A stretch of 64,000 bases of DNA, from sequence record PZ019085.1; one strand, 5' to 3'. Below the pieces are notes generated by a model. It saw only the letters and a list, made by a program, of their open reading frames with translations. It was not told the origin of the DNA and did no database searches. Source of the DNA: a phage. The translations under genes and the position numbers were made by a program. Below, one piece after another: positions 1-43,196 of the stretch (its first letter is position 1; each line of letters begins with the position of its first letter).

Positions 1-1
1 G

Positions 2-205
2 GTGAGTTCTTTCGGTTTTGTTGATATTATTGCTATCTTATTAGCATCTAGTATCATAAGTGTTGTTGGTGGCATCATTGGTGGCGGTACTGCAGCCATC
101 ATTATTAATCTTGTTAAAAGTAGTTTACAGGAACGTAAAGACAAGATAAAGGCCAAGAATAATGAAGTTGAACGTTTTATTACCGAATGCAGGAATTTGA
201 GATGA
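2..205 (+). CDS. Hypothetical small membrane protein (5' partial at window edge)
   Basis: ORF track; hydrophobic N-terminal stretch (IIAILLASSIISVVGGIIGGG); start lies outside the window. Confidence 0.35.
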   Translation: MSSFGFVDIIAILLASSIISVVGGIIGGGTAAIIINLVKSSLQERKDKIKAKNNEVERFITECRNLR

Positions 206-438
206 GTATAGCAATTTACATTAAATCAGAATCATGTGATTCTTATCTGTATTCCTATGATACCGGAACGTCAGAAGAGAAAATCAAAGAAGATTTAGAA
301 AGCGACTTGGATATGTTCCGACCTATTTCTGATTATATGGTCCAAATATCTGATAGTGAAAGTCCGTCAACAGAAACATGTGTTGAACTTATTATACAAG
401 ATATCTTTAAACAATCATGGGACCGAGATGATGAGTAA
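202..438 (+). CDS. Hypothetical acidic protein
   Basis: ORF track frame; internal ATG at 202 preceded by agga; stop overlaps the nudE start. Confidence 0.45.
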   Translation: MSIAIYIKSESCDSYLYSYDTGTSEEKIKEDLESDLDMFRPISDYMVQISDSESPSTETCVELIIQDIFKQSWDRDDE

Positions 439-886
439 GAAAAATAAAGTGAAAGAACTATCAGCCGGTATTATTTTCCTTACCGAAGATAAAGAATTAT
501 TCATGGGGCGTGTAACTGGTTCTCGTCCTAAAGGTTCTTTAGCTCATCGGTGGGATATTCCTAAAGGTCGTGTCGAGCCCGGTGAATCTCCTATCGAAGC
601 CGCTATTCGTGAATGCGAAGAAGAAACTGGGTTTACACAATATGACCCTGCCTTCCTGAAAGACCTAGGTGAACATCATTACTCAGACAATAAGAATATT
701 CATCTGTTCCTATATACCATCCCTGTAGAGCACGAGCAATTCAGAAACAGTGTTTGTAATTCCTATCATACATTCCCAGACGGACGACAGATTCCTGAAT
801 TTGATGCATTCGCTTTAATTAAACCTTCTCAATGGGAGTATGTAATGGGCAAATCATTATATAAGGTGCTCACTACCCTCCTATAA
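428..886 (+). CDS. nudE: Nudix hydrolase (NudE-like)
   Basis: Nudix box GRVEPGESPIEAAIRECEEETG; sits directly upstream of lysozyme as in T4-like phages; start at 428 or 431. Confidence 0.85.
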   Translation: MMSKKNKVKELSAGIIFLTEDKELFMGRVTGSRPKGSLAHRWDIPKGRVEPGESPIEAAIRECEEETGFTQYDPAFLKDLGEHHYSDNKNIHLFLYTIPVEHEQFRNSVCNSYHTFPDGRQIPEFDAFALIKPSQWEYVMGKSLYKVLTTLL

Positions 887-890
887 GTAA

Positions 891-920
891 TAAATACCTC
901 CTATAAACGTGGGAGGTATT
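891..920 (+). promoter_or_regulatory. Hairpin (acctcc/ggaggt) sequestering the lysozyme SD, with late-promoter-like TATAAA motifs in and before the loop
   Basis: Inverted repeat 896-901 / 912-917; right arm is the ggagg SD; aataaata and tataaacg motifs; resembles the known T4 gene e arrangement. Confidence 0.5.
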
Positions 921-1409
921 ATGAATATATTTGAAATGCTTCGTAATGACGAAGGTCTTAGACTGTCTTTATACAAAGACACTGAAGGCTTTTGGACGAT
1001 TGGCATAGGCCATTTAGTAACAAAGAACCCGTCTTTAGCCGTAGCTAAAGCTGAACTTGACAGAATGATCGGACGTAAATGCAACGGTACAATTACCCTT
1101 GATGAGGCTGAAAAGCTATTTAATGAAGACGTTGATAAAGCCGTTCGCGGAATCTTGGGTAATGCTAAACTTAAACCGGTATATGATTCTTTAGATGCGG
1201 TTCGTCGATGTGCATTGGTCAATATGGTCTTCCAAATGGGTGTAGCAGGCGTCGCTGGTTTTACTAATTCTCTTCGTATGCTTCAGCAGAAACGTTGGGA
1301 TGAAGCGGCAGTAAATCTAGCCCAATCTAAATGGTATCGTCAGACACCTAATCGCGCGAAACGCGTAATCTCAACATTTAAAACAGGAACTTGGAAAGCG
1401 TATATATGA
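921..1409 (+). CDS. e: Lysozyme (endolysin, T4 gene e type)
   Basis: Translation [32 protein letters not shown]... matches T4 lysozyme along its whole length; ATG at 921 after ggagg. Confidence 0.95.
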
Positions 1410-1687
1410 AAACATATAGTGAATTTTTATCAGAATCTATTCTTAACGAAGCTACTGACACATTTGCAACTAAGCTAGGTGCAGCTTTGGTTGAAGCTGA
1501 AAGTCTATTAGCACGTATTTCTGAACTTGCTAGTAAGATAGATACTCGCAAATTTGAACGTACCAGCGATATCGTTAAGCTTGAAGCATTGTTGCGTATG
1601 TGCGATAAACCGGAAGAAATCGCTAAGAATGGCTCGCTAATGAAACAACGTCTTGAAAAATATATTTCAGGCGCTTCAGAAAAATAG
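1406..1687 (+). CDS. Internal-protein-like with capsid-targeting leader ([10 protein letters not shown])
   Basis: N-terminus resembles the T4 internal-protein capsid-targeting sequence MKTYQEFIAE; ATGA overlap with the lysozyme stop. Confidence 0.55.
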
Positions 1688-1688
1688 T

Positions 1689-1740
1689 GTTTACTTCCTC
1701 CAAGGACTTTGATACTATACATTCATCAACTACTTGGAGG
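1689..1740 (+). promoter_or_regulatory. Early sigma70-type promoter (GTTTAC -35, TAnnnT -10) with inverted repeat cctccaag/cttggagg spanning the -10 and the denV SD
   Basis: gtttac at 1689-1694, tactat at 1713-1718; 8-bp inverted repeat 1697-1704 / 1733-1740. Confidence 0.55.
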
Positions 1741-1745
1741 AAATT

Positions 1746-2159
1746 ATGACCCGTATCAATTTAACACTTGTTTCTGAACTGACCGACCAACATCTTATGG
1801 CAGAGTATCGTGAATTACCACGCGTATTTGGTGCAGTCCGTAAACATGTTCAAAACGGTAAACGTGTAAAGGATTTTAAAATCTCTCCAACATTTATCTT
1901 AGGCACAGGTCACGTAACATTCTTTTACGACAAACTCGAATTTTTACGTTTACGTCAAATCGAGCTAATCGCTGAATGCTTGAAACGTGGTTTCAAAATC
2001 AAGGACACGACTGTCCAGGATATTTCCGACATCCCTGCCGAATTTCGTAATAATTATGTCCCGTCCGAAGCGTCCATTGCGATAAGTCAAGCTCGCTTAG
2101 ATGAAAAAATTGCTCAACGTCCTACTTGGTACAAATACTATGGTAAATCAATTTACTAA
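1746..2159 (+). CDS. denV: Endonuclease V, pyrimidine-dimer DNA glycosylase
   Basis: [34 protein letters not shown]... closely matches T4 DenV. Confidence 0.95.
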
Positions 2160-2165
2160 GGAAAA

Positions 2166-2426
2166 ATGAAAATGTATCAAGAATTTATCGCTGAAGCAGA
2201 TGACAAAGGTCCTAAATTTAAAGTTAAAGCTTTCATTGGTGATGCGGAAGACTTTGGCTCATTAAAACGTAATGGGTATTTTTTCTTAGGTGGCGATGGT
2301 AAAGAAATCAACACCTATGCAAAACGTAGTGAAATTGCTTATGTTGTAGCAAGCCCTAAAGTAGATGTTGACGATATTGGATACGATTTTAACAACTTCG
2401 GAATTATTTCTGGCGGTAAAGCTTAA
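2166..2426 (+). CDS. Internal protein (capsid-targeting leader MKMYQEFIAE)
   Basis: Leader motif; located in the ip locus next to denV. Confidence 0.7.
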   Translation: MKMYQEFIAEADDKGPKFKVKAFIGDAEDFGSLKRNGYFFLGGDGKEINTYAKRSEIAYVVASPKVDVDDIGYDFNNFGIISGGKA

Positions 2427-2489
2427 ACGGTTTACGCTTAAGTATTAATATAGTATAATTACTCTATCAAAACAAACAAGGAAACAAAA

Positions 2490-2804
2490 ATGAAAACGTA
2501 TAAAGAATTTATTGCAGAATCCGCCAACCAACGCGTTGAAGGTGGTTATATTTGGATTGAACAAGTTGAGCCGCCGAGCCGCACTTCTACAGGTAAATGG
2601 AAAATTACTGTTGATGGTCCTGGCGGTAAACGTAGGACTCTTAAAGAAATTAACGGGTACTATGAAGAAGCTCTTTCGGATGCAGGAACTTACATGATGC
2701 AAATCATGATTAAAAACCCTGAAAACCGTTTTGCAGCTAAAGTCTTCCGCCGTATTGGTAATAAACTTTATGATGCATACTCTAAAAACTTCCCTAAAGA
2801 ATAA
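2490..2804 (+). CDS. Internal protein (capsid-targeting leader MKTYKEFIAE)
   Basis: Leader motif; own upstream promoter-like element. Confidence 0.7.
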   Translation: MKTYKEFIAESANQRVEGGYIWIEQVEPPSRTSTGKWKITVDGPGGKRRTLKEINGYYEEALSDAGTYMMQIMIKNPENRFAAKVFRRIGNKLYDAYSKNFPKE

Positions 2805-2829
2805 CATAAATTAAAACAATAGGAACAAA

Positions 2830-3159
2830 ATGAAAACATATCAAGAGTTTATCACTGAAGTTACATTATCTGCGGAACAGAAAGCTGCTATCGAAGAAGG
2901 TAAAAATCCCAAAGTAACATATAAAGTAAATAGTAAAGGCGTTTTTGATGACTTGGTTCAAGACCCTGAATTGAAAAAGGCTCTTTCTAAAACTAATGCG
3001 TACTTTGCTCCTAAATTTAACACAGCCGGTGTACTTATTGGATTGGATGTATTCAACTCTAAAGGTGTTCTATCTAATGCCTTTGGTTATGCCGCTAACA
3101 AAATTACCAAAGCCGCATGGGAATCCAATACTAAACAAGCTCAAAAGCCTAGAGTATAA
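2830..3159 (+). CDS. Internal protein (capsid-targeting leader MKTYQEFITE)
   Basis: Leader motif. Confidence 0.7.
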   Translation: MKTYQEFITEVTLSAEQKAAIEEGKNPKVTYKVNSKGVFDDLVQDPELKKALSKTNAYFAPKFNTAGVLIGLDVFNSKGVLSNAFGYAANKITKAAWESNTKQAQKPRV

Positions 3160-3331
3160 TTCTTGCCTAATAAAGGGAAACGCAACCTCTCCTTATGAAC
3201 GTCGAGTCCTCTGAGTGATGTACCTTTTCCAACCTGTAATAAGGTCGAGCGCAATGCGGTAATGGGTTTACATAGCGAGTCGAAGGACATAACATGTGCC
3301 ACGGAATGGCCCAAACCTTAAGAGAAATAAT

Positions 3332-3871
3332 ATGAGAACATTTTTAACTGGTCCTTATCTATCCCTGATGAATGCTTTTACACACCATTCTGATGCTAGA
3401 GTAGAAGAAATTTGTAAGAACGGTTATGCCCCACCATTTGAAGACGTACTCAAGCAGTACTGTACACTTCGTTTAGACGGCGGCAGACAATCAGGTAAAT
3501 CGACCGCAGTAACTAATTTTGCTGTTAATTGGCTGTATGACGGTGGAACAGTTATTGTTCTTTCTAATACTTCAGCTTATTCTAAAATTTCTGCTGGCAA
3601 TATTAAAAAAGAATTTTCTCGTTATTCTAGCGATGATATTCGATTCCGTTTATTTACTGATTCTGTCCGTAGTTTTATTGGCAATGAAGCTTCTAAATTC
3701 CGTGGATTAACGCTTTCTCGTATTCTGTATATAATTGACGAGCCTATTAAAGCTCCTGATATGGATAAGATTTACAACATACATATTAAAACAGTCCAAC
3801 ACTGTTGCAAAAGCAAATATTGCATCGGCGGTATTGCTCGTCCTCAATTTTTTGTGATTGGAATGCAATGA
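3332..3871 (+). CDS. Hypothetical P-loop NTPase
   Basis: Walker A GGRQSGKST and Walker B-like ILYIIDEP; the track start at 3296 is GTG, ATG at 3332 preferred. Confidence 0.5.
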   Translation: MRTFLTGPYLSLMNAFTHHSDARVEEICKNGYAPPFEDVLKQYCTLRLDGGRQSGKSTAVTNFAVNWLYDGGTVIVLSNTSAYSKISAGNIKKEFSRYSSDDIRFRLFTDSVRSFIGNEASKFRGLTLSRILYIIDEPIKAPDMDKIYNIHIKTVQHCCKSKYCIGGIARPQFFVIGMQ

Positions 3872-4176
3872 TGACCACTATTGAAGTTTTTGAATATTGT
3901 TATAATAGCCAAGTATGCAATAAAAGGGCCCTTGTAGAAAATTACGAGATTTACCATTTTAAACCTAAACGATATCGTTTGACTAAAGGTCCGTTCGCAG
4001 GGCAGCAGGTTCTTTGTACTGCTCCTAATGCACGGTTGATGACTAGTATTCCGCATTTCAAAATGGAATTTATTGATGGACCATTTAAGGGATTAATCAC
4101 TCAAAGTTTAATGGCGTTTAATTCCGACCCATTTTTGATTAAAGAAAAAACTTGGATAAATTTATTTTCTAATTGA
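3868..4176 (+). CDS. Hypothetical protein
   Basis: ORF track; ATG at 3868 overlaps the upstream stop. Confidence 0.45.
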   Translation: MMTTIEVFEYCYNSQVCNKRALVENYEIYHFKPKRYRLTKGPFAGQQVLCTAPNARLMTSIPHFKMEFIDGPFKGLITQSLMAFNSDPFLIKEKTWINLFSN

Positions 4177-4182
4177 GGTTAT

Positions 4183-4545
4183 ATGAAAGCATATCAAATT
4201 CTTGAAGGTGCACATAAAGGCACTATTTATTTTGAAGACGGTACTCAAGCTCGGATTATCGTCTCTAAGACTTTTAAAGAAGACGCTATTGTAGACCCGG
4301 AAATTTTCTACGGTTTGAATGCCCGTGAAATTGAAATTGAACATCAACCTAAAGTTAAAATTGAAGGTGGTCAACATCTGAACGTTAACGTTCTGCGTCG
4401 CGAAACTCTGGAAGATGCAGTTAAGCATCCTGAAAAATATCCGCAGCTGACCATCCGCGTATCCGGTTATGCAGTTCGCTTTAACTCTCTGACTCCGGAA
4501 CAGCAGCGCGACGTTATCGCTCGTACCTTTACTGAGAGTCTATAA
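4183..4545 (+). CDS. Autonomous glycyl-radical cofactor (GrcA/YfiD-like)
   Basis: C-terminal ~65 aa ([59 protein letters not shown]) matches E. coli GrcA with the RVSGY glycyl-radical motif; that half has GC-rich host-like codons. Confidence 0.85.
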
Positions 4546-7715: not shown

Positions 7716-8297
7716 ATGGCTAGTTTAATTTTTACATATGCCGCTATGAACGCTGGTAAGTCTGCTTCATTACTTACTGCCGCACATAACTATAAAGAAC
7801 GTGGCATGGGTGTATTAGTTCTTAAACCGGCTATTGATACTCGCGATTCAAAAGGTGAAATAGTCTCTCGTATTGGTATTCGTCAGGACGCCAATATAAT
7901 TACAAAAGACATGGATATCTTTGAATTCTATAAATGGGCTGCGGCACAAAAGGATATTCATTGTGTATTTGTTGACGAAGCTCAGTTCTTAACTACTGAA
8001 AAGGTGTATCAACTTAGTCGTATTGTTGACGTATACAATGTGCCAGTAATGGCATATGGACTACGAACAGATTTTAAAGGTAATCTATTTGAAGGTTCTC
8101 AAGCATTAATGGCTATTGCCGATAAGCTTGTTGAACTTAAAGGTGTCTGTCATTGTGGTAAAAAGGCCACAATGGTAGCTAGAGTCACGGAAGACGGACT
8201 TCCAATTACGGATGGCAGTCAAATTGAAATTGGTGATACCGATAGATATGTGTCATTATGCCGGAAGCATTGGAATGATTTGACAGGGTTGTTATAA
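7716..8297 (+). CDS. tk: Thymidine kinase
   Basis: P-loop NAGKSASLL, FVDEAQF, C-terminal CHCGKKA zinc ribbon; matches T4 Tk. Confidence 0.95.
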   Translation: MASLIFTYAAMNAGKSASLLTAAHNYKERGMGVLVLKPAIDTRDSKGEIVSRIGIRQDANIITKDMDIFEFYKWAAAQKDIHCVFVDEAQFLTTEKVYQLSRIVDVYNVPVMAYGLRTDFKGNLFEGSQALMAIADKLVELKGVCHCGKKATMVARVTEDGLPITDGSQIEIGDTDRYVSLCRKHWNDLTGLL

Positions 8298-36646: not shown

Positions 36647-37282
36647 ATGAAAACTACACCAATCACTATCGCTATTGACGCAATCGTAAAACAAGCTTCA
36701 TCTCTTGCCACTATGGCTAAAGTAATTAGTCAAAACCCTGCCCGATATAATGCTATTCTTGAAACTCTTCGTCGCCCTGGACTGAGTAATTATGAAAGCC
36801 GAGTAATTATTACAGGTGTTGGTAAGAATGCTAATATTGCAACTAAAGCTTCTGAGACATTTGCTTCATTAGGTATTCCTAGCATGTATTTGAACACTGG
36901 GCATTATTCTCATGGTGACGCAGGATTTATTGCACCTAATGATGTATTAGTTCACATCAGTCGTTCTGGTAAGACTGAAGAAATGATAGGTGTTGCTAAA
37001 CATCTTCGTATGATTCGTCCTCAGGTTAAACAGATTCTGTTACATTGTAACCCTGACATTCCACAAGAATACGAAGCTCTTTTTGATTATACGTTCTGTA
37101 CCGGTATCGCGGTAGAAGTTGACGAGAACTCTTTAGCTCCGACGATGTCTACTACATTGTTGTTAGCGCTTATCGATACGTTCGCTATCAACCTTTCATC
37201 TGAACGTGGATTTACCTCTAATGATTTCCTTAAGTTCCATCCAGGCGGTGCACTAGGTGCCATGTTACGAGGCGAGCAATGA
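36647..37282 (+). CDS. SIS-domain sugar-phosphate isomerase (KdsD/GutQ/GmhA-like)
   Basis: ITGVGKNANIATKASETFASLGIPSMYLNTG...HGD...VLVHISRSGKTEEM matches the SIS-domain pattern of arabinose-5-phosphate or phosphoheptose isomerases; no CBS domain. Confidence 0.8.
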   Translation: MKTTPITIAIDAIVKQASSLATMAKVISQNPARYNAILETLRRPGLSNYESRVIITGVGKNANIATKASETFASLGIPSMYLNTGHYSHGDAGFIAPNDVLVHISRSGKTEEMIGVAKHLRMIRPQVKQILLHCNPDIPQEYEALFDYTFCTGIAVEVDENSLAPTMSTTLLLALIDTFAINLSSERGFTSNDFLKFHPGGALGAMLRGEQ

Positions 37283-37422
37283 AAGCAATAACAATAGGAC
37301 TTTTACTATTGATGCTTGTCATGACTATCTATTGGAGCTTAACGGCTCCAGTAATGATTCCAACACTTGTAATTGGATGGATTATGATTGGACTACAAGC
37401 AAAGTATGAATGCTTTAACTAG
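37279..37422 (+). CDS. Possible 47-aa two-TM membrane peptide
   Basis: MKAITIGLLLLMLVMTIYWSLTAPVMIPTLVIGWIMIGLQAKYECFN; ATGA-type overlap with the SIS gene stop. Confidence 0.3.
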   Translation: MKAITIGLLLLMLVMTIYWSLTAPVMIPTLVIGWIMIGLQAKYECFN

Positions 37423-37463
37423 AATAGTGTACAATACTCCTACTTACCAATGAGGACCACAAC

Positions 37464-39149
37464 ATGAAAAAAGCTGTTATTCTTGGTGCTGGACTGGCAA
37501 CTCGTTTGTATCCAATAACGCATCATATTCCTAAGGTGCTTGTTAACTATAAACAAGACACTATTCTGAGCAATTTGTATACAATTTATTCTGACCTTGG
37601 CGCAGATGAAATTATTGTAGTAGTTCATTCAAAATTTGCTGAAACTGTTCGAGCTTATTGTGAGCAAGAAGGGTTCAATGTGACTATTCGTACAGTTGAT
37701 GAAGCATACGGATCTGCTTATGCTCTTGCTAAATTACACAAAGATTTAGACGGCCATAATGTAATTGTTAACTGGTGCGATATTATTCCTGATTTTGGTT
37801 CATGGTCTTGGAATGTTAACGCAATCTATGTTAAGGGTGACGAATGTCGGTATAATTTCGACGGTGAAAATATCACTAACGTAGGTTCAACAGGTGGTAA
37901 TGTTGTAGGAATTTATCAGTTCAAAGACTGGGAATTCTATATGGGTTCTACCGATGAGGAAATTCATGAATACTGCAAAGGACGTGATTTCGTAGAATTC
38001 CTTTACAGCGGCGCATTCAATAAATCAGAGCTTATGAATATAATTGATTTAGGTGATATGCCTAAACTTGAAAAAGCTCATGAAGTTCGTGAACTTAATC
38101 GTAGTTTTAATGCAGTTGAAATTGGTGAAGAAACTGTAACTAAATTCGCATTAACCGAACAGGGCCGAGCTCTTCAGAAAGATGAGATTTCATGGTATCT
38201 TAAAGTGAAATCAGATTCAGTTCCTCAGTTAGTTTCTGTTAATGAAAATAACTTTGAAATGGAACGCATTAAAGGTAAGCCGGCATTTGAATATATTAAA
38301 TCCAAATCAAGTCTTGCTCGTCCACAAATTGTTGATGCAATTTTAGATGCACTGAAATTCAGCACAGACACTTATTTTGTAAGTCCTGAAACTGTTCGTC
38401 GTGATTTCACTAAAGAATTCTATACGAAAGTTATTGATCGTTGTGAAAGTATTCAACCATTGATTGATTCATTTGGTAAAATCACACATGTGAACTACAC
38501 TAAGATTGGACGTCTGAAGCCAATGCTGAAACAAGCTTTAGAACACCTTATTCGTTATCATAACCGTTCTCAGGGACAGTACTCTGTTATTCATGGTGAC
38601 CCTAACTTCAGTAATACTATGATTACTGATAACGGCGAAGTCAAGTTTATCGACCCTCGTGGATATTTTGGTGAAACCAAGATTTACGGGCCAAAATTGT
38701 ATGACGAAGCTAAAGTGCTTTATGCTGTTTCAGGTTATGATGAATTCAATGCTAATCCGACCTGGGGACAGTTTACTATTGATGAAACAACTTGTAATGT
38801 GACTATTAACATCAATCCATTAATTTACAAATATGGAAAGATGAGTTCGTTTAACGAGTATCATCATTTGGCGGTGGCAATTATCTGGATTGCATTGGGT
38901 GGTTATTTCAAGAATAATCCACTTAAAGCGGTAGCCGCATATTATAAAGGTATGGAACTTCTGACTAAGCAATTACGTAACATGGGCCGTGTACTTCAGG
39001 ACGGCTCTATTAGTTATGACGTAGCAGAACCTGTAACGGCTACTCTGATTACAAAAAATCCTGGTAAATGGGTACTAACTGATAAAGAAACTGGTGTTTC
39101 TTATCGTCCAATCGGTGGCGATATCACTCATCAATGGGAACGAATCTAA
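37464..39149 (+). CDS. Bifunctional sugar-1-phosphate nucleotidylyltransferase / APH-like sugar kinase
   Basis: N-terminal ILGAGLATRL (RmlA/GlmU-type NTP-transferase G-x-G-T-R motif); C-terminal HGDPNFSNTMI ... FIDPRG (phosphotransferase/choline-kinase-like catalytic loop). Confidence 0.75.
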   Translation: MKKAVILGAGLATRLYPITHHIPKVLVNYKQDTILSNLYTIYSDLGADEIIVVVHSKFAETVRAYCEQEGFNVTIRTVDEAYGSAYALAKLHKDLDGHNVIVNWCDIIPDFGSWSWNVNAIYVKGDECRYNFDGENITNVGSTGGNVVGIYQFKDWEFYMGSTDEEIHEYCKGRDFVEFLYSGAFNKSELMNIIDLGDMPKLEKAHEVRELNRSFNAVEIGEETVTKFALTEQGRALQKDEISWYLKVKSDSVPQLVSVNENNFEMERIKGKPAFEYIKSKSSLARPQIVDAILDALKFSTDTYFVSPETVRRDFTKEFYTKVIDRCESIQPLIDSFGKITHVNYTKIGRLKPMLKQALEHLIRYHNRSQGQYSVIHGDPNFSNTMITDNGEVKFIDPRGYFGETKIYGPKLYDEAKVLYAVSGYDEFNANPTWGQFTIDETTCNVTININPLIYKYGKMSSFNEYHHLAVAIIWIALGGYFKNNPLKAVAAYYKGMELLTKQLRNMGRVLQDGSISYDVAEPVTATLITKNPGKWVLTDKETGVSYRPIGGDITHQWERI

Positions 39150-39535
39150 TGCATCGTGTAGAAAACATGCTTAATCTTTGTTTTGATGTCGACGATTGTA
39201 TAACAGAGTGGAATAACAATCGTGATTACGTGAACTTCAAGCCAGACGTCGAAATGGTGTCTGCCATTAATGCCCTGTATGATGCAGGGCATACCATAAC
39301 GCTTTACACTGCTCGTGGTATGAAGTCAGTAGGTCCTGGTCGTATAGCAATTGACATTCTCCCAAGTCTGATTCAGAACTTGGCAAACATTGGCTTGAAG
39401 TACCATAATTTGCTAACACATAAACCAGTATATGATTGGATTATCGACGACAAAGCTATGCGTCCCGACGAATTCAAAGCTCTTATGAATAAAGGCGAAT
39501 TCGAAACATTTAAATCATATAAACCGAATCTATAA
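39149..39535 (+). CDS. HAD-superfamily phosphatase-like protein
   Basis: FDVDDCIT near the N-terminus, TARG, WIIDDKA; size typical of KdsC/GmhB-type small HAD phosphatases. Confidence 0.55.
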   Translation: MHRVENMLNLCFDVDDCITEWNNNRDYVNFKPDVEMVSAINALYDAGHTITLYTARGMKSVGPGRIAIDILPSLIQNLANIGLKYHNLLTHKPVYDWIIDDKAMRPDEFKALMNKGEFETFKSYKPNL

Positions 39536-39589
39536 TAATTTAAGTAAGACCTGCAAAAACCATCGCATAAATTAACGCGAGATGCAAAA

Positions 39590-40750
39590 ATGAATACTTT
39601 TAAAATCGGAACGAATTTTGATTTAGCTCTTCTTGATAAAATCGTAGAGCTCAATAAAACTTATCCTAATAGCTTGATAAACGAAGTATACGGCTCTACA
39701 AGAGAAATGGCTTTTGTAGCAGCCAGACCTGATTTTAGGCTTCCTGACGTTGACAAAAAGATGTTAGAAGATTACGTTAAACGTTGTAATGAATTAGGTA
39801 TTTGCTTTAACTATACACTCAACACGATAAATCCCGGTTCAAAAAGAGAACTAGTTGAGTGGAAGAAGAAAGCTATTCAGGATTATGTTCAGTATCTTTG
39901 GTCAATAGGCGTATGGCGTATTACTATCGCTAACCCTGTTGTTATGGAAATTGTTCGTGAAGTCAATAAAGACATTGAGATTGAAGTTTCAACAATTCTA
40001 CATGTCGATGCTGTAACTCAAATCAAATACTTACATGACCAATACAATATCAAAAAGGTCTGCTGTGGAATTCATAAGAACCGTTCAGTTTCTTTCCTGA
40101 AGCGTGCAGCAGAGTTTTGCAATAAGAACAATATAATATTTGAAGTTCTTGTAAATGAGTTCTGTTCTAATGCTGGTAAAGGGTATACAACACATTGTAG
40201 CTATCGTGACTCTTGCTATATTTTCCATAGTACTGATGTTACAGCTGATGATGCTAAATCCTTAAACGGGTATCCAATGCAACACTGCATTAAAGCTCGT
40301 GATACAGACCCATTTAACTGGTTGAGAACTCGTTTTGTTCGTCCTCAAGATTTGAAACTTTATAATGATATTGGTATCACTCAATTCAAAGTTTCAGGAC
40401 GTACAGGTAGCACAGACTACATTTTGAAAGTTCTTGAAGCATACGCTTCTGAAAAGTTTGAAGGTAATTTGTTAGAACTGTGGAAGCCTTTAGAGACTAT
40501 TTTCACTCTTGAAAACGAAACTGAGTTTTCACATACAGTAAATATTGAAACCTCTTTGTTAGATGGCTTTTTAGAAAAAAGGTGGTTCAGGCATCCAGAT
40601 TTCGATTGTGCTAATGAAATCTGTGGGACGACGTGTACATATTGTGAAAGATATTATAAACGTCAGTTATCTAAAAACGGGTTAGCAGAAAACTCTATAT
40701 CTATTATTGATATAACTAACTCTGATGACGCTTTGAGGTACCCAGAATGA
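39590..40750 (+). CDS. Cys-rich hypothetical enzyme in the sugar island
   Basis: 386 aa with multiple conserved-looking Cys clusters (CANEICGTTCTYC, EFCSNAGKGYTTHCSY); fold not assignable by eye. Confidence 0.55.
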   Translation: MNTFKIGTNFDLALLDKIVELNKTYPNSLINEVYGSTREMAFVAARPDFRLPDVDKKMLEDYVKRCNELGICFNYTLNTINPGSKRELVEWKKKAIQDYVQYLWSIGVWRITIANPVVMEIVREVNKDIEIEVSTILHVDAVTQIKYLHDQYNIKKVCCGIHKNRSVSFLKRAAEFCNKNNIIFEVLVNEFCSNAGKGYTTHCSYRDSCYIFHSTDVTADDAKSLNGYPMQHCIKARDTDPFNWLRTRFVRPQDLKLYNDIGITQFKVSGRTGSTDYILKVLEAYASEKFEGNLLELWKPLETIFTLENETEFSHTVNIETSLLDGFLEKRWFRHPDFDCANEICGTTCTYCERYYKRQLSKNGLAENSISIIDITNSDDALRYPE

Positions 40751-41030
40751 TTTCTAGAAAAACTTTTAACCACCAACTTAATGAAGAGATTTTGACTATG
40801 AAACTGAACACTAACGAACAAATTCTTAAAAAGGCCCTTATGGGGGCCTGTTTGAAACCAAAGCGGCTAAAGTGATTAAAGAACCTGTTCAATTGGAATA
40901 CTACGCTGATGCATTTCTTCATAGTGTTCTTGGAAGTATCGATGCTGAAGCTTTACGGTATATCAACACTGCCAAGAAATTCAAATAAGCTTTACGAATC
41001 GAGTATATAATAAATTGTATTGAGGTAAAC

Positions 41031-41747
41031 ATGGGAAAACATAACACAATGAAATATATCAAAGCCGCAGATTTTCAAACCGCATTTAAAGCAGTCAATC
41101 GTGAAATTTTAGAAAACCCGGAATTCGTAACTGATTCTCGTATTGGACGTTGTAATGAAATTGGGTCTATGACAGTAGTTGTTGACACTCCATCGTCATT
41201 CAAAATGACCGACCCACGTATTAACCGCATCTCTTATGAATATGCCGAAGACTTCTGGAAGTTTATGATTTCTGGTGGTACTGATGCAGAAGAAGCGTTT
41301 AAGGCATATCCTAATGTCGCTAAATTTATTTCTAAACCAAAATCGGATGCTTTGCCTGCAAACTTCAACACTTTCTATGGTCCTCGCATTGCGGCCCAAT
41401 TACCAACTCTTCTAAAAGAACTTAAAGAGAAACCTAACTCTCGAAGAGTTGTGTTCCAAATTCTAGAAAGTTCAGATCAGGCTTTGCTTGATTCGGACGA
41501 AACACTTGAATATCCATGTACTGACTCAGTGACTTATTATATTCGTGATGGTAAGCTTTATACCCACTGTCATATGCGTTCTCAGAACTGTGCTGTTGTT
41601 ATGCAGTTGGATTTTTATCTCCAAGGAAAATTACTTCATTATATCGCTAACGAATGCGGTGTAGAAGTAGGTGATTATACTCATACCATGGTAAGTGCCC
41701 ATGTGTTTGAACGTGATTTTGATTATGTTAAAGGATTCCTTGACTAA
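41031..41747 (+). CDS. 42: dCMP hydroxymethylase (thymidylate-synthase superfamily)
   Basis: PCTDSVTYYIRDGK ... MRSQNCAV resembles the catalytic Cys region of T4 gp42; syntenic position. Confidence 0.75.
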   Translation: MGKHNTMKYIKAADFQTAFKAVNREILENPEFVTDSRIGRCNEIGSMTVVVDTPSSFKMTDPRINRISYEYAEDFWKFMISGGTDAEEAFKAYPNVAKFISKPKSDALPANFNTFYGPRIAAQLPTLLKELKEKPNSRRVVFQILESSDQALLDSDETLEYPCTDSVTYYIRDGKLYTHCHMRSQNCAVVMQLDFYLQGKLLHYIANECGVEVGDYTHTMVSAHVFERDFDYVKGFLD

Positions 41748-42646
41748 TGGCTATTTTCCGCGTACCTATCTTGAGTATGCGGTCTTATGAAACTGGTCAG
41801 TATGCTATCCTTAAGGATGGCAACTTCCAACTTCATTTGCACCGTGCTAATCCAGGCGATGTGATTACATATCCACGTAATGCATCTGATATTAAAGAAT
41901 GTGAACGTCTTTTCCCGGAATTTAAGTTTGTTCCATTATGGTATAAAGATAACGCGTATAACACTCGTAAATATTTCTGGTCTGAAAATGAATTTGTGGT
42001 TGATTCATTAATTGCTTATTATGATTGTGATTTTCTAATCACAGATATCACTGGATATGATGGCGCTTTTGACGTAGAATTCAATTTCAATATCACTGCA
42101 GACCCTAATAAACCACGTTTTTATATTGATGAATTCTTAAAAACCGACATGTTGTCTGTTAATCGTTCACTTCAAACTACTGTGTTGAATGAACGTCAAA
42201 AAGAAGTGCTGGTTAACGCAGGTGCAGATGGTAATAAGATTATCGTAACGCAGAAAGTTATACGTCCTTCCGTCATGCAGCGTCTTGTAGGTGATTTGGC
42301 TCCTATTCATCTAGATGGTATTTTTCATCCATTTCGAATTAGTGACCCATGCTATCGTTTTGAACAAGTTGTTGAATGCGCAATTCAATTAGGTCAACCG
42401 CTTTATATAACTGATCCAAATAATAGTTTCGACAGAAATAAGTATCCTGAAGAAGCGCTGATTCGAATTTTTAATCCAACTAAAACTGAGTACTATCAAA
42501 TTCTTAAAGGACGTCCGAAGATTCAATATTTCGAAAATCCTGAAGAAGTATTCCATCCAGGTCTTGGTGAGTTCATCTACTTTAATGCTTTAATTTCTTC
42601 ACCGTATAATATACCTAAATACGAAGATGTCGTAATCGAGGAATAA
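41747..42646 (+). CDS. Hypothetical protein at the position of T4 beta-glucosyltransferase
   Basis: 299 aa; no match to T4 beta-gt noticed. Confidence 0.55.
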   Translation: MAIFRVPILSMRSYETGQYAILKDGNFQLHLHRANPGDVITYPRNASDIKECERLFPEFKFVPLWYKDNAYNTRKYFWSENEFVVDSLIAYYDCDFLITDITGYDGAFDVEFNFNITADPNKPRFYIDEFLKTDMLSVNRSLQTTVLNERQKEVLVNAGADGNKIIVTQKVIRPSVMQRLVGDLAPIHLDGIFHPFRISDPCYRFEQVVECAIQLGQPLYITDPNNSFDRNKYPEEALIRIFNPTKTEYYQILKGRPKIQYFENPEEVFHPGLGEFIYFNALISSPYNIPKYEDVVIEE

Positions 42647-42647
42647 A

Positions 42648-43196
42648 ATGGCTAAAATTATTTTAGTAGACGGCCCGGATAATGCTGGTAAAACAACTTT
42701 CATTAATGACATAATGGAAATTAGTGAAAGATATGTAAAGATTGATTTCCCTAAACGAACAGTTGATGGACGTTTCGATGTTAAGTCTCGAAATGAAGTT
42801 GGCTGTTTCGAAACGATGTTGAATTATTTAGACCCTACTAAGATTTATCTGTTAGACCGTGGATATATTAGTAACTGGGTTTATGGACGTATTCGACAAG
42901 ATGTGGACTCGGTTCTTGACGTTTATGAACAGGATTATGTTCGTCTTTGCCAAAACCATGATGTGTTCACAATTATTTTAACACGTAACGAAATGACTGA
43001 AAGTTTTGAAGACGACCTTATTACTTTGTCTTCATTCGGTTTTAATACAGTCATTTCATATTTTGAAGAGTTTGCAATTCATAACAAAATCCAAACGTAT
43101 CAATTACTTAATCATGATGGTGCTAACAAAGTTATAGGATTTAATGCAAGCGAACGTAATTATTTGATTACAGAAATCATTAAATGGGCTCGTTAA
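42648..43196 (+). CDS. P-loop nucleotide kinase (thymidylate/dNMP kinase-like)
   Basis: Walker A DGPDNAGKTT and LLDRGYIS (DRY-like motif of the TMPK fold). Confidence 0.55.
   Translation: MAKIILVDGPDNAGKTTFINDIMEISERYVKIDFPKRTVDGRFDVKSRNEVGCFETMLNYLDPTKIYLLDRGYISNWVYGRIRQDVDSVLDVYEQDYVRLCQNHDVFTIILTRNEMTESFEDDLITLSSFGFNTVISYFEEFAIHNKIQTYQLLNHDGANKVIGFNASERNYLITEIIKWAR

Follow-up and report, generated by a model that had tools for sequence, protein, structure and literature searches.

The four small leader-bearing genes of the window (the whole 64-kb stretch of phage DNA analysed here) are probably members of the T-even internal protein (Ip) class, whose products would be packaged by way of a capsid-targeting leader (CTS), processed by the gp21 prohead protease and injected into the host, where they would most probably block host defences. 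The gene class, its swappable slots and these particular genes are already known, and nothing in the window is new in gene content, architecture or mechanism.

The Ip locus and its leaders

The window is assigned to a coliphage of the genus Mosigvirus (the RB69 group). It has 96-98% DNA identity to many sequenced phages, and its Ip locus has orthologues at the same level of identity in many Mosigvirus genomes (APCEc01, JS09, HY126, GADS24 and others). The gene order is nudE-e-IPa-denV-IPb-IPc-IPd-vs.8, where IPa to IPd are the genes under study (Table 1); it is syntenic with that of T4, nudE-e-ipIII-ipII-denV-vs.8, except that denV and vs.8 in T4 are only 27 bp apart, whereas three of the four Ip genes of the window lie between them. 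An Ip locus adjoins either e/denV or 57B/tRNA, and all four genes are found at the e/denV locus. The sequence-only reading had described the interval 1406-3159 as four internal-protein genes; the four ORFs are indeed inside it, but so is denV, which encodes no internal protein and is likewise annotated in APCEc01 and RB69.

Table 1. Genes, leader patches and promoter match in and around the Ip locus of the window
Feature	Position	Strand	Basis or remark
e (lysozyme)	921..1409	+	Pfam Phage_lysozyme; APCEc01 and RB69 annotation; left edge of Ip locus
IPa, Ip5-like internal head protein, 93 aa	1406..1687	+	phrog_3499 'internal head protein', E 1e-46
denV (endonuclease V, pyrimidine-dimer glycosylase)	1746..2159	+	phrog_1183, E 1.5e-62; Pfam Pyr_excise
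IPb ribosome-site and leader DNA patch	2131..2197	+	Candidate recombination junction; resembles other Ip gene 5' ends
IPb, internal head protein (RB69ORF125c family), 86 aa	2166..2426	+	phrog_2667 'internal head protein', E 9e-20
Sigma-70-type (T4 early-like) promoter match TTTACG-17-TATAAT	2431..2459	+	Consensus scan 10/12; pattern only
IPc ribosome-site and leader DNA patch	2478..2519	+	86% identity to T4 ipII, ipIII 5' ends
IPc, Ip10 internal head protein, 104 aa	2490..2804	+	Body 96.8% identical to PP01 Ip10
IPd ribosome-site and leader DNA patch	2809..2860	+	Homology to JS09/PP01 stops exactly at 2860
IPd, RB69ORF123c family, 109 aa	2830..3159 (incl. stop codon)	+	Body 99% identical to RB69ORF123c
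vs.8 homologue	3332..3871	+	87% identity to T4 Vs.8; phrog_1488; right edge of Ip locus

All four leader variants are present exactly as they had been quoted, each at the ATG of a forward-strand ORF, and together give the consensus MK[T/M]YxEF[I/L]xE. Translation of the full window in six frames gives four matches to the pattern MK.Y.EF..E, every one at the start of one of these ORFs; from residue frequencies 4e-4 matches would be expected, and none arose in 40 shuffles. The enrichment over chance is 10^4-fold. The T4 IPII/IPIII leader, MKTYQEFIAE, differs at one position from each of those of IPb (MKMYQEFIAE), IPc (MKTYKEFIAE) and IPd (MKTYQEFITE). The features in common with T4 IPI, IPII and IPIII extend to the gp21 L/I-X-E site after residue 10 of a 10-residue leader, small size, the e/denV locus and mutually unrelated bodies.

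In the T4 CTS system (Mullaney & Black 1996, reviewed in PMC9026906 and PMC3012670), the CTS alone suffices for foreign proteins to be packaged and then delivered into the host upon infection, and mutagenesis of IPIII has assigned positions 4 (Tyr) and 7 (Phe) to targeting and positions 8 and 10 to gp21 processing (PMC9026906). Tyr4 and Phe7 are kept in 4/4 leaders of the window, as are the processing determinants [I/L]8 and Glu10; the L/I-X-E sites at residues 8-10 are LSE in IPa, IAE in IPb and IPc, and ITE in IPd, with cleavage predicted after Glu10. With every determinant present in all four leaders, and with the genes at a classical Ip locus, the proposal that these are capsid-targeted internal proteins is well supported.

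If the T4 work carries over, the N-terminal 10 residues would act as the CTS by binding the prohead scaffolding core, so that each protein would enter the prohead before DNA packaging. Once gp21 had cleaved them after Glu10, the mature proteins (8-11 kDa) would stay beside the DNA in the head and be ejected with it into the cell ahead of any phage gene expression. The prohead core and protease proteins that this calls for (gp21, gp22, gp67 and gp68) are presumably encoded by the phage, because the window is Mosigvirus DNA and gp21-gp23 are part of the core genome of T4-related phages (PMC9026906); the T4 map would put their genes outside the window. A search of the literature gave no virion proteome of a Mosigvirus in which the four proteins are covered.

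Bodies and family assignments

Downstream of their leaders the proteins are divergent, as had been claimed: residues 11 to the end have no significant pairwise BLAST similarity, and a profile-profile alignment (hhalign) of IPc against IPd, both of which fall in phrog_3966, covers 14 leader columns and nothing else. On the same two results, the candidate reading of IPc and IPd as remote paralogues, suggested by their common PHROG, was rejected. Comparison of the four bodies with T4 IPI, IPII and IPIII (Ip1-3) also gave no similarity beyond the CTS.

The description of the bodies as novel, on the other hand, has to be dropped. Deposited genomes of other phages, in numbers from dozens to hundreds, carry copies with 98.7-100% protein identity; IPc is Ip10, IPa is a homologue of RB32 Ip5, IPb is annotated in RefSeq, and IPd is RB69ORF123c. 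IPa and e overlap by their start and stop codons, respectively (ATGA), and the predicted mature form of IPa (9.2 kDa, pI 6.3) has a body 100% identical across many Mosigvirus and some Tequatrovirus genomes; at 47% identity to RB32 Ip5, with which it has a PHROG in common, it forms a separate subfamily of Ip5. IPb (predicted mature form 8.2 kDa, pI 5.2) belongs to a family of 218 phage records, several of them, including RefSeq entries, labelled 'internal head protein'. IPc (predicted mature form 10.8 kDa, pI 9.6) has a body 72% identical to Ip10 of phage VR7, its JS09 homologue is annotated 'Ip10; similar to Ip10 [phage Pol]', and one database source gives the name Ip10 to a homologue; carriers of Ip10 are phages Pol, PP01, VR7 and SP18. 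Polymorphic Ip families of T-even phages, Ip4-Ip12, were reportedly described by Repoila et al. in 1994; the database records examined give no Ip number for IPb or IPd.

IPd (predicted mature form 10.7 kDa, pI 9.6) stands somewhat apart. The mature parts of IPa, IPb and IPc have homology to proteins already classed as Ip, whereas that of IPd has it to unnamed CTS-bearing ORFs only. Its family comprises 91 phage records, labelled 'hypothetical protein' in every one listed, and a literature search found no paper naming RB69ORF123c. An exhaustive HMMER search of 1.84 billion representative proteins returned two real clusters only, with the leader in both; weak matches to large repetitive proteins (cadherin-like, collagen-like) were rejected as repeat-driven noise. 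AnYang ORF054, the sole distant relative and 37% identical to IPd, has the leader and the position after denV in common with it. Judged by sequence, the RB69ORF123c family very probably belongs to the Ip class despite its 'hypothetical' label, and its placement there is a small gain.

Structure prediction of each body was among the checks that the sequence-only reading had proposed. An AlphaFold2 model of IPd (pLDDT 79.9) predicts a compact folded domain, and PDB fold searches with it gave no match. Searches of PDB sequences with all four bodies found no relatives. The alignments available for prediction were shallow, since word-indexed homology searches gave only 2-3 close homologues per protein.

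These properties bear on the possibility that the proteins are packaged by their leaders for a physical role, as DNA counter-ions or as aids to packing or ejection, with bodies under no constraint beyond charge and size and hence free to drift. Two of the four, IPc and IPd, are basic, like T4 IPII and IPIII, and in T4 the lysines of internal proteins touch DNA phosphates, with ~1000 Ip molecules within the packaged DNA (PMC3012670). IPa and IPb, however, are near-neutral to acidic, unlike T4 IPII and IPIII, and the bodies are 97-100% conserved per family, both within Mosigvirus and across genera, which favours specific folded functions over drift. The compact domain predicted for IPd also argues against a physical role, as does the finding that all three T4 internal proteins proved to be specific enzyme inhibitors (PMC12373910), so that this explanation seems improbable.

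Possible targets in the host

An anti-defence role for the four proteins is plausible by analogy, since T4 Ip1, Ip2 and Ip3, which are non-homologous, each inhibit one distinct GmrSD type IV enzyme (2025 study, PMC12373910). The idea is already in print: the same study proposes an inhibitor role for the remaining genes of both Ip loci, and in a 2010 review the internal proteins of T-even phages appear as a diverse set of defence proteins that have the CTS alone in common (PMC3012670). In addition, RB69 IPI shields RB69 against GmrSD (PMC6024577). Speaking against such a role, the four bodies have no similarity to Ip1, Ip2 or Ip3 outside the CTS, and scans with Pfam, NCBIfam and PADLOC matched no family, known anti-defence and defence-related ones included. 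Internal proteins arrive with the DNA, and are therefore the sole phage protection before its own gene expression; as the three of T4 are specific GmrSD inhibitors, the many other leader-bearing proteins of T4 relatives, these four included, make up a list of candidate inhibitors.

The gene content of the window points to DNA of a kind open to GmrSD-type attack. It encodes genes for arabinosyl-5-hydroxycytosine (a SIS isomerase, an NTP-transferase/kinase, and U32-like and ThyA-like proteins), the pathway for which is described in PMC13326640, and arabinosylated DNA of Mosigvirus is cut by BrxU, an enzyme of the GmrSD family (PMC13390438). The modification predicted from these genes differs from the glucosyl-hmC of T4. 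Each mature protein would most probably act against a single, specific first-line defence of the host by binding and blocking it. The best candidates are variants of GmrSD-family type IV restriction enzymes that attack the sugar-modified cytosine DNA of the phage; the assignment of a target to any one of the four is speculative. Were targets to be found, they would help to account for the host range of therapeutic Mosigvirus phages, a value already recognised in the field.

Another possibility is that the proteins are injected effectors with targets other than type IV enzymes, such as BREX, retrons, abortive-infection sensors, DNA-end nucleases, superinfecting phages or host takeover functions, for which the head-packaged T4 ADP-ribosyltransferase Alt is a precedent (PMC9026906). 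Charge and predicted structure vary widely among the four bodies, none of which resembles a known GmrSD inhibitor: sequence comparison finds no similarity to the characterised ones beyond the CTS, and the predicted fold of IPd has no PDB neighbour. Such a lack of resemblance discriminates weakly, because the known inhibitors are themselves mutually non-homologous. Three of three characterised CTS-type internal proteins, moreover, hit GmrSD variants, and GmrSD diversity is large enough for many non-homologous inhibitors (PMC12373910). At 8-11 kDa the proteins are also too small to be likely enzymes, and no catalytic-domain matches were found. Targets outside type IV restriction are, on balance, rather unlikely, and inhibition of GmrSD-type enzymes is the preferred reading.

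Homology breaks, defective copies and promoters

It is at the short ribosome-site and leader patches that homology among Ip loci breaks off. In blastn, the IPb patch matches 5' ends of Ip genes in T4 (ipIII), Lutter (ipIII) and AnYang at 77-94% identity, and the flanks of these matches have no homology. JS09 is 98% identical to the window up to position 2860, the last leader codon of IPd; from there an IpII body replaces that of IPd, so that JS09 has IpII where the window has IPd, and homology is found again from 3229. Among eight phages compared, from six genera, there are 2-5 CTS genes per locus, in differing combinations. Since homology breaks at the ribosome-site and leader patch, cassette exchange is indicated: the locus appears to be a cassette array in which unrelated bodies are swapped by recombination within this patch. 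Anti-CRISPR loci and the PeSL promoter cassettes of T4-type hyperplastic regions (PMC2839356) likewise have unrelated small genes swapped at short conserved junctions, and the same analogy to exchangeable anti-defence islands is made by Silas et al. (PMC12373910). In the Ip locus of the window, unlike those islands, the junction is partly within coding sequence, in the virion-targeting leader.

A tentative extension, which we consider possible but doubtful, is that at least one of the four bodies, with the unannotated IPd or the acidic IPb as the most plausible choice, is injected to inhibit a defence that internal proteins have so far not been tied to, for example an arabinosyl-5-hydroxycytosine-specialised type IV subtype or a non-GmrSD system, and that the leader patch would serve as the recombination junction for trade between Mosigvirus and Tequatrovirus. 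If this were so, the patch would let phages with differently modified DNA exchange injected countermeasures.

RB69 has the identical gene set in the same order (ORF127c, ORF125c, ORF124c and ORF123c), with window proteins 92-97% identical to its own. In the deposited RB69 record, however, the IPa leader is altered by a paired indel, ORF123c is without Glu10 and ORF124c (Ip10) has a shortened C-terminus, whereas all of these genes are intact in the window; JS09 has an internal deletion in its IPb, and Lutter a frameshift. The truncated and frameshifted copies of IPb and the RB69 IPd homologue lacking Glu10 suggest that these genes are dispensable and sometimes decaying.

Could at least one of the leaders therefore be vestigial, a decaying or non-packaged remnant of shuffling on a protein that is expressed early in the cytoplasm or is non-functional? 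The defective relatives would fit such a history, as would the early-type promoter match directly upstream of IPc. No consensus late promoter TATAAATA is found upstream of IPa, IPb, IPc or IPd; one-mismatch sites occur only upstream of e, and late expression of the four genes has to be assumed to come from read-through from these near-consensus sites. All four window ORFs are nevertheless intact, lack none of the CTS determinants and have good ribosome sites; each gene is 97-100% conserved in many independent isolates; and the leader is kept at the protein level although the four genes differ synonymously. Sequencing errors, which the RB69 record is documented to contain (PMC13326640), may moreover account for its oddities. 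A vestigial leader on any of the four thus appears quite improbable, and functional packaging signals are the preferred reading.

The gap between IPd and the vs.8 homologue (3160-3331), considered as a possible RNA gene, gave no Rfam match and no excess of structure (z = +1.25); it contains an out-of-frame remnant of the N-terminus of T4 vs.8.

Layout of the locus

Judged by its sequence, the window belongs to a T4-type phage in the RB69 group (genus Mosigvirus); in a database comparison, bases 1-4200 matched 763 phage records, with top full-length matches (96-98% identity) to GADS24, JN02, APCEc01 and Mosigvirus mar005P1 isolates. At the equivalent site T4 has the order nudE-e-ipIII-ipII-denV-vs.8, which identifies the locus as the classical internal-protein (Ip) locus. 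One Ip gene precedes denV and the other three follow it, ahead of vs.8; in T4, denV and vs.8 are only 27 bp apart.

Coordinates of the Ip locus and of the DNA modification cluster
Feature	Position	Strand	Description	Predicted mature product
nudE	356-886	+	locus gene	
e	921-1409	+	lysozyme	
IPa	1406-1687	+	leader-bearing ORF	9.2 kDa, pI 6.3
denV	1746-2159	+	locus gene	
IPb	2166-2426	+	leader-bearing ORF	8.2 kDa, pI 5.2
IPc	2490-2804	+	leader-bearing ORF	10.8 kDa, pI 9.6
IPd	2830-3159	+	leader-bearing ORF	10.7 kDa, pI 9.6
vs.8	3332-3871	+	after 170-nt gap; then vs.7, vs.6	
SIS-domain isomerase	36647-37282	+	modification cluster	
NTP-transferase/kinase	37464-39149	+	modification cluster; intact, 561 aa	
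Peptidase-U32-like protein	39590-40750	+	modification cluster	
Thymidylate-synthase homologue	41031-41747	+	modification cluster	
Two ORFs	41747-43196	+	modification cluster; no Pfam match	

The gap between IPd and vs.8 (3160-3331), with a sigma-70-like promoter match at 3132-3160, holds, out of frame, a remnant (GHNMCHGMAQTLR) of the extension with which the N-terminus of T4 Vs.8 is annotated: the T4 start has been placed too far upstream, or else the lineage of the window has lost the segment. Considered as an RNA gene, the gap matched no Rfam family and had no excess RNA structure (z = +1.25). Long ORFs antisense to IPa (1378-1722, - strand, 114 aa) and IPc (2445-2807, - strand, 120 aa) presumably arose by chance in AT-rich sequence.

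Leaders, bodies and identity of the four proteins

The sequence-only reading of 1406-3159 as four capsid-targeted internal proteins, with a shared leader and unrelated bodies, quoted the leaders exactly and is correct on both leaders and bodies, but its interval also takes in denV, whose product is not of this class. The pattern MK.Y.EF..E has four matches in a six-frame translation of the 64 kb, only at the four ORF starts; residue frequencies predict 4e-4, and 40 shuffles gave none. The leaders differ from one another at synonymous sites, so the motif is more than a recent DNA copy and is being maintained at the level of the protein. After residue 10, no significant similarity was found among the bodies compared pairwise, or to T4 IPI, IPII and IPIII. 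Remote paralogy of IPc and IPd, suspected because both score phrog_3966, was rejected: profile-profile comparison of the families aligns only 14 leader columns.

In T4 IPIII, mutagenesis shows that targeting depends on residues 4 and 7 and processing on residues 8 and 10, and the prohead protease gp21 cleaves after L/I-X-E (PMC9026906). Tyr4, Phe7, Ile/Leu8 and Glu10 are present in all four proteins. With exact leaders, these determinants and the classical locus, the proposed class is borne out, and IPa-IPd very probably belong to it. The prohead protease and core genes, part of the conserved core of T4 relatives (PMC9026906), should lie outside the window, judging by T4 map position. The 10-residue leader alone suffices for foreign proteins to be loaded into T4 heads and delivered into cells (PMC9026906), and RB69 itself reportedly gains protection from GmrSD through its IPI (PMC6024577), so the delivery route operates in Mosigvirus. 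We infer that IPa-IPd are packaged, cleaved and injected; a literature search found no published virion proteomics covering them.

None of the four matched Pfam, NCBIfam or PADLOC families or PDB sequences. IPa and IPb match the 'internal head protein' families phrog_3499 (E 1e-46) and phrog_2667, respectively. IPa is 100% identical in many Mosigvirus and some Tequatrovirus genomes (Lutter, Geo) and 47% identical to an RB32 protein annotated Ip5; IPb occurs in 218 records, several annotated 'internal head protein'. IPc is Ip10: its body shares 96.8% identity with the protein that PP01 lists as 'Ip10 internal head protein' and 72% with Ip10 of VR7 and SP18, and in the JS09 record the homologue is likened to Ip10 of phage Pol. 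IPd is RB69ORF123c (99%), a 'hypothetical protein' in every match listed. An exhaustive HMMER search with IPd (1.84 billion representative proteins) yielded no more than two genuine clusters: that of IPd itself and one of Dhakavirus type (39% identity), which retains the leader (MKTYQQFITE or MKTYQEFITE) and in AnYang likewise lies right behind denV. Other weak matches were rejected as repeat-protein noise.

The bodies had also been called novel, which they are not: close copies of IPa, IPb, IPc and IPd occur in about 239, 176, 132 and 77 records, respectively, so that even close relatives differ in which of them they carry. Literature and databases already contain the phenomenon, the locus, the hypothesis and the genes themselves; the one minor gain is that the RB69ORF123c family, hypothetical in the matches listed, has the sequence and position of an internal protein.

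The deposited RB69 record (AY303349; L004 1046-1327, 2130-2402, 2471-2800) shows differences from the window that would abolish processing. A -1/+1 pair of indels 22 nt apart turns the ORF127c leader into MKTYMNFYQN; ORF123c, with FIAA in place of FITE, lacks Glu10; and the C-terminus of ORF124c (Ip10) is shorter and different. Sequencing errors, documented elsewhere in the record, could account for these differences, or they may have arisen in the laboratory strain.

Cassette exchange among phages

Across eight phages (RB69, JS09, Lutter, PP01, VR7, CC31, AnYang, T4), the locus holds two to five leader-bearing genes in differing combinations and orders. Ip genes that are otherwise unrelated resemble one another in DNA only over a 35-55-nt patch (77-94% identity) made up of the ribosome site and leader codons, and it is here that homology between phages breaks. 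Most clearly, JS09 is 98% identical to the window up to base 2860, the last IPd leader codon, after which an IpII body and a duplicated denV fragment replace the IPd body, homology resuming at 3229. IPa and Ip10 are common to Mosigvirus and Tequatrovirus almost unchanged. On this comparison the locus behaves as a cassette array, and the JS09 and Lutter loci bear footprints of cassette exchange and decay, also between genera with different DNA modifications. JS09 (L005 2956-3965) has an IPb with an in-frame internal deletion leaving 38 aa; the Tequatrovirus Lutter (L006 2961-3222) has a frameshifted IPb and an IPa with 100% identity to that of the window.

Expression and possible targets

How might these genes be expressed? 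Upstream of IPa-IPd there is no consensus late promoter (TATAAATA); its nearest exact match in the window is at 8293. Near-consensus late sites do occur shortly before e, and a search of 800-3500 revealed no terminator on the + strand, so that late transcripts could read through from e. The start codon of IPa shares the ATGA at 1406-1409 with the stop codon of e, whereas T4 ipIII starts 88 nt after e; the overlap suggests that IPa translation is coupled to this late lysis gene. Sequences like T4 early promoters (GTTTAC...TA..AT) stand ahead of denV and IPc (1690-1725 and 2431-2459, +), the second coinciding with an early-type sigma-70 match directly 5' of IPc, and resemble the promoter-bearing cassettes of T4-type hyperplastic regions (PMC2839356). 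An early promoter ahead of a gene for a head-packaged protein is somewhat unexpected, and the timing of IPa-IPd expression is uncertain.

Inhibition of GmrSD by Ip1 is long established. T-even internal proteins were reviewed in 2010 as diverse defence proteins with only the capsid-targeting sequence in common (PMC3012670). IPIII is required for T4 infection of ECOR17, and IPIII made in the cell is effective even when it lacks its leader (PMC9391042, 2022); Ip2 and Ip3 inhibit two further distinct GmrSD variants without cross-protection, and still other variants have been proposed as targets of the remaining genes in the two Ip loci (PMC12373910, 2025). By analogy, IPa-IPd are best explained as head proteins that are processed by gp21 and then injected, each of which blocks one particular first-line defence; a variant of a type IV restriction enzyme is the most probable target. 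That at least one of them has an anti-defence role is moderately probable, and the four are sensible candidates for experimental study. A mainly physical role inside the head, targets other than restriction, or partial decay of the genes are less likely, given how strongly each body is conserved, the folded predicted model of IPd and the T4 precedents. The window also encodes an arabinosyl-5-hydroxycytosine DNA modification cluster (36647-43196, +), corresponding to RB69p045-055, whose pathway has been described (PMC13326640); since the GmrSD-family enzyme BrxU cleaves Mosigvirus DNA so modified (PMC13390438), the selective pressure that the anti-restriction reading assumes is present.
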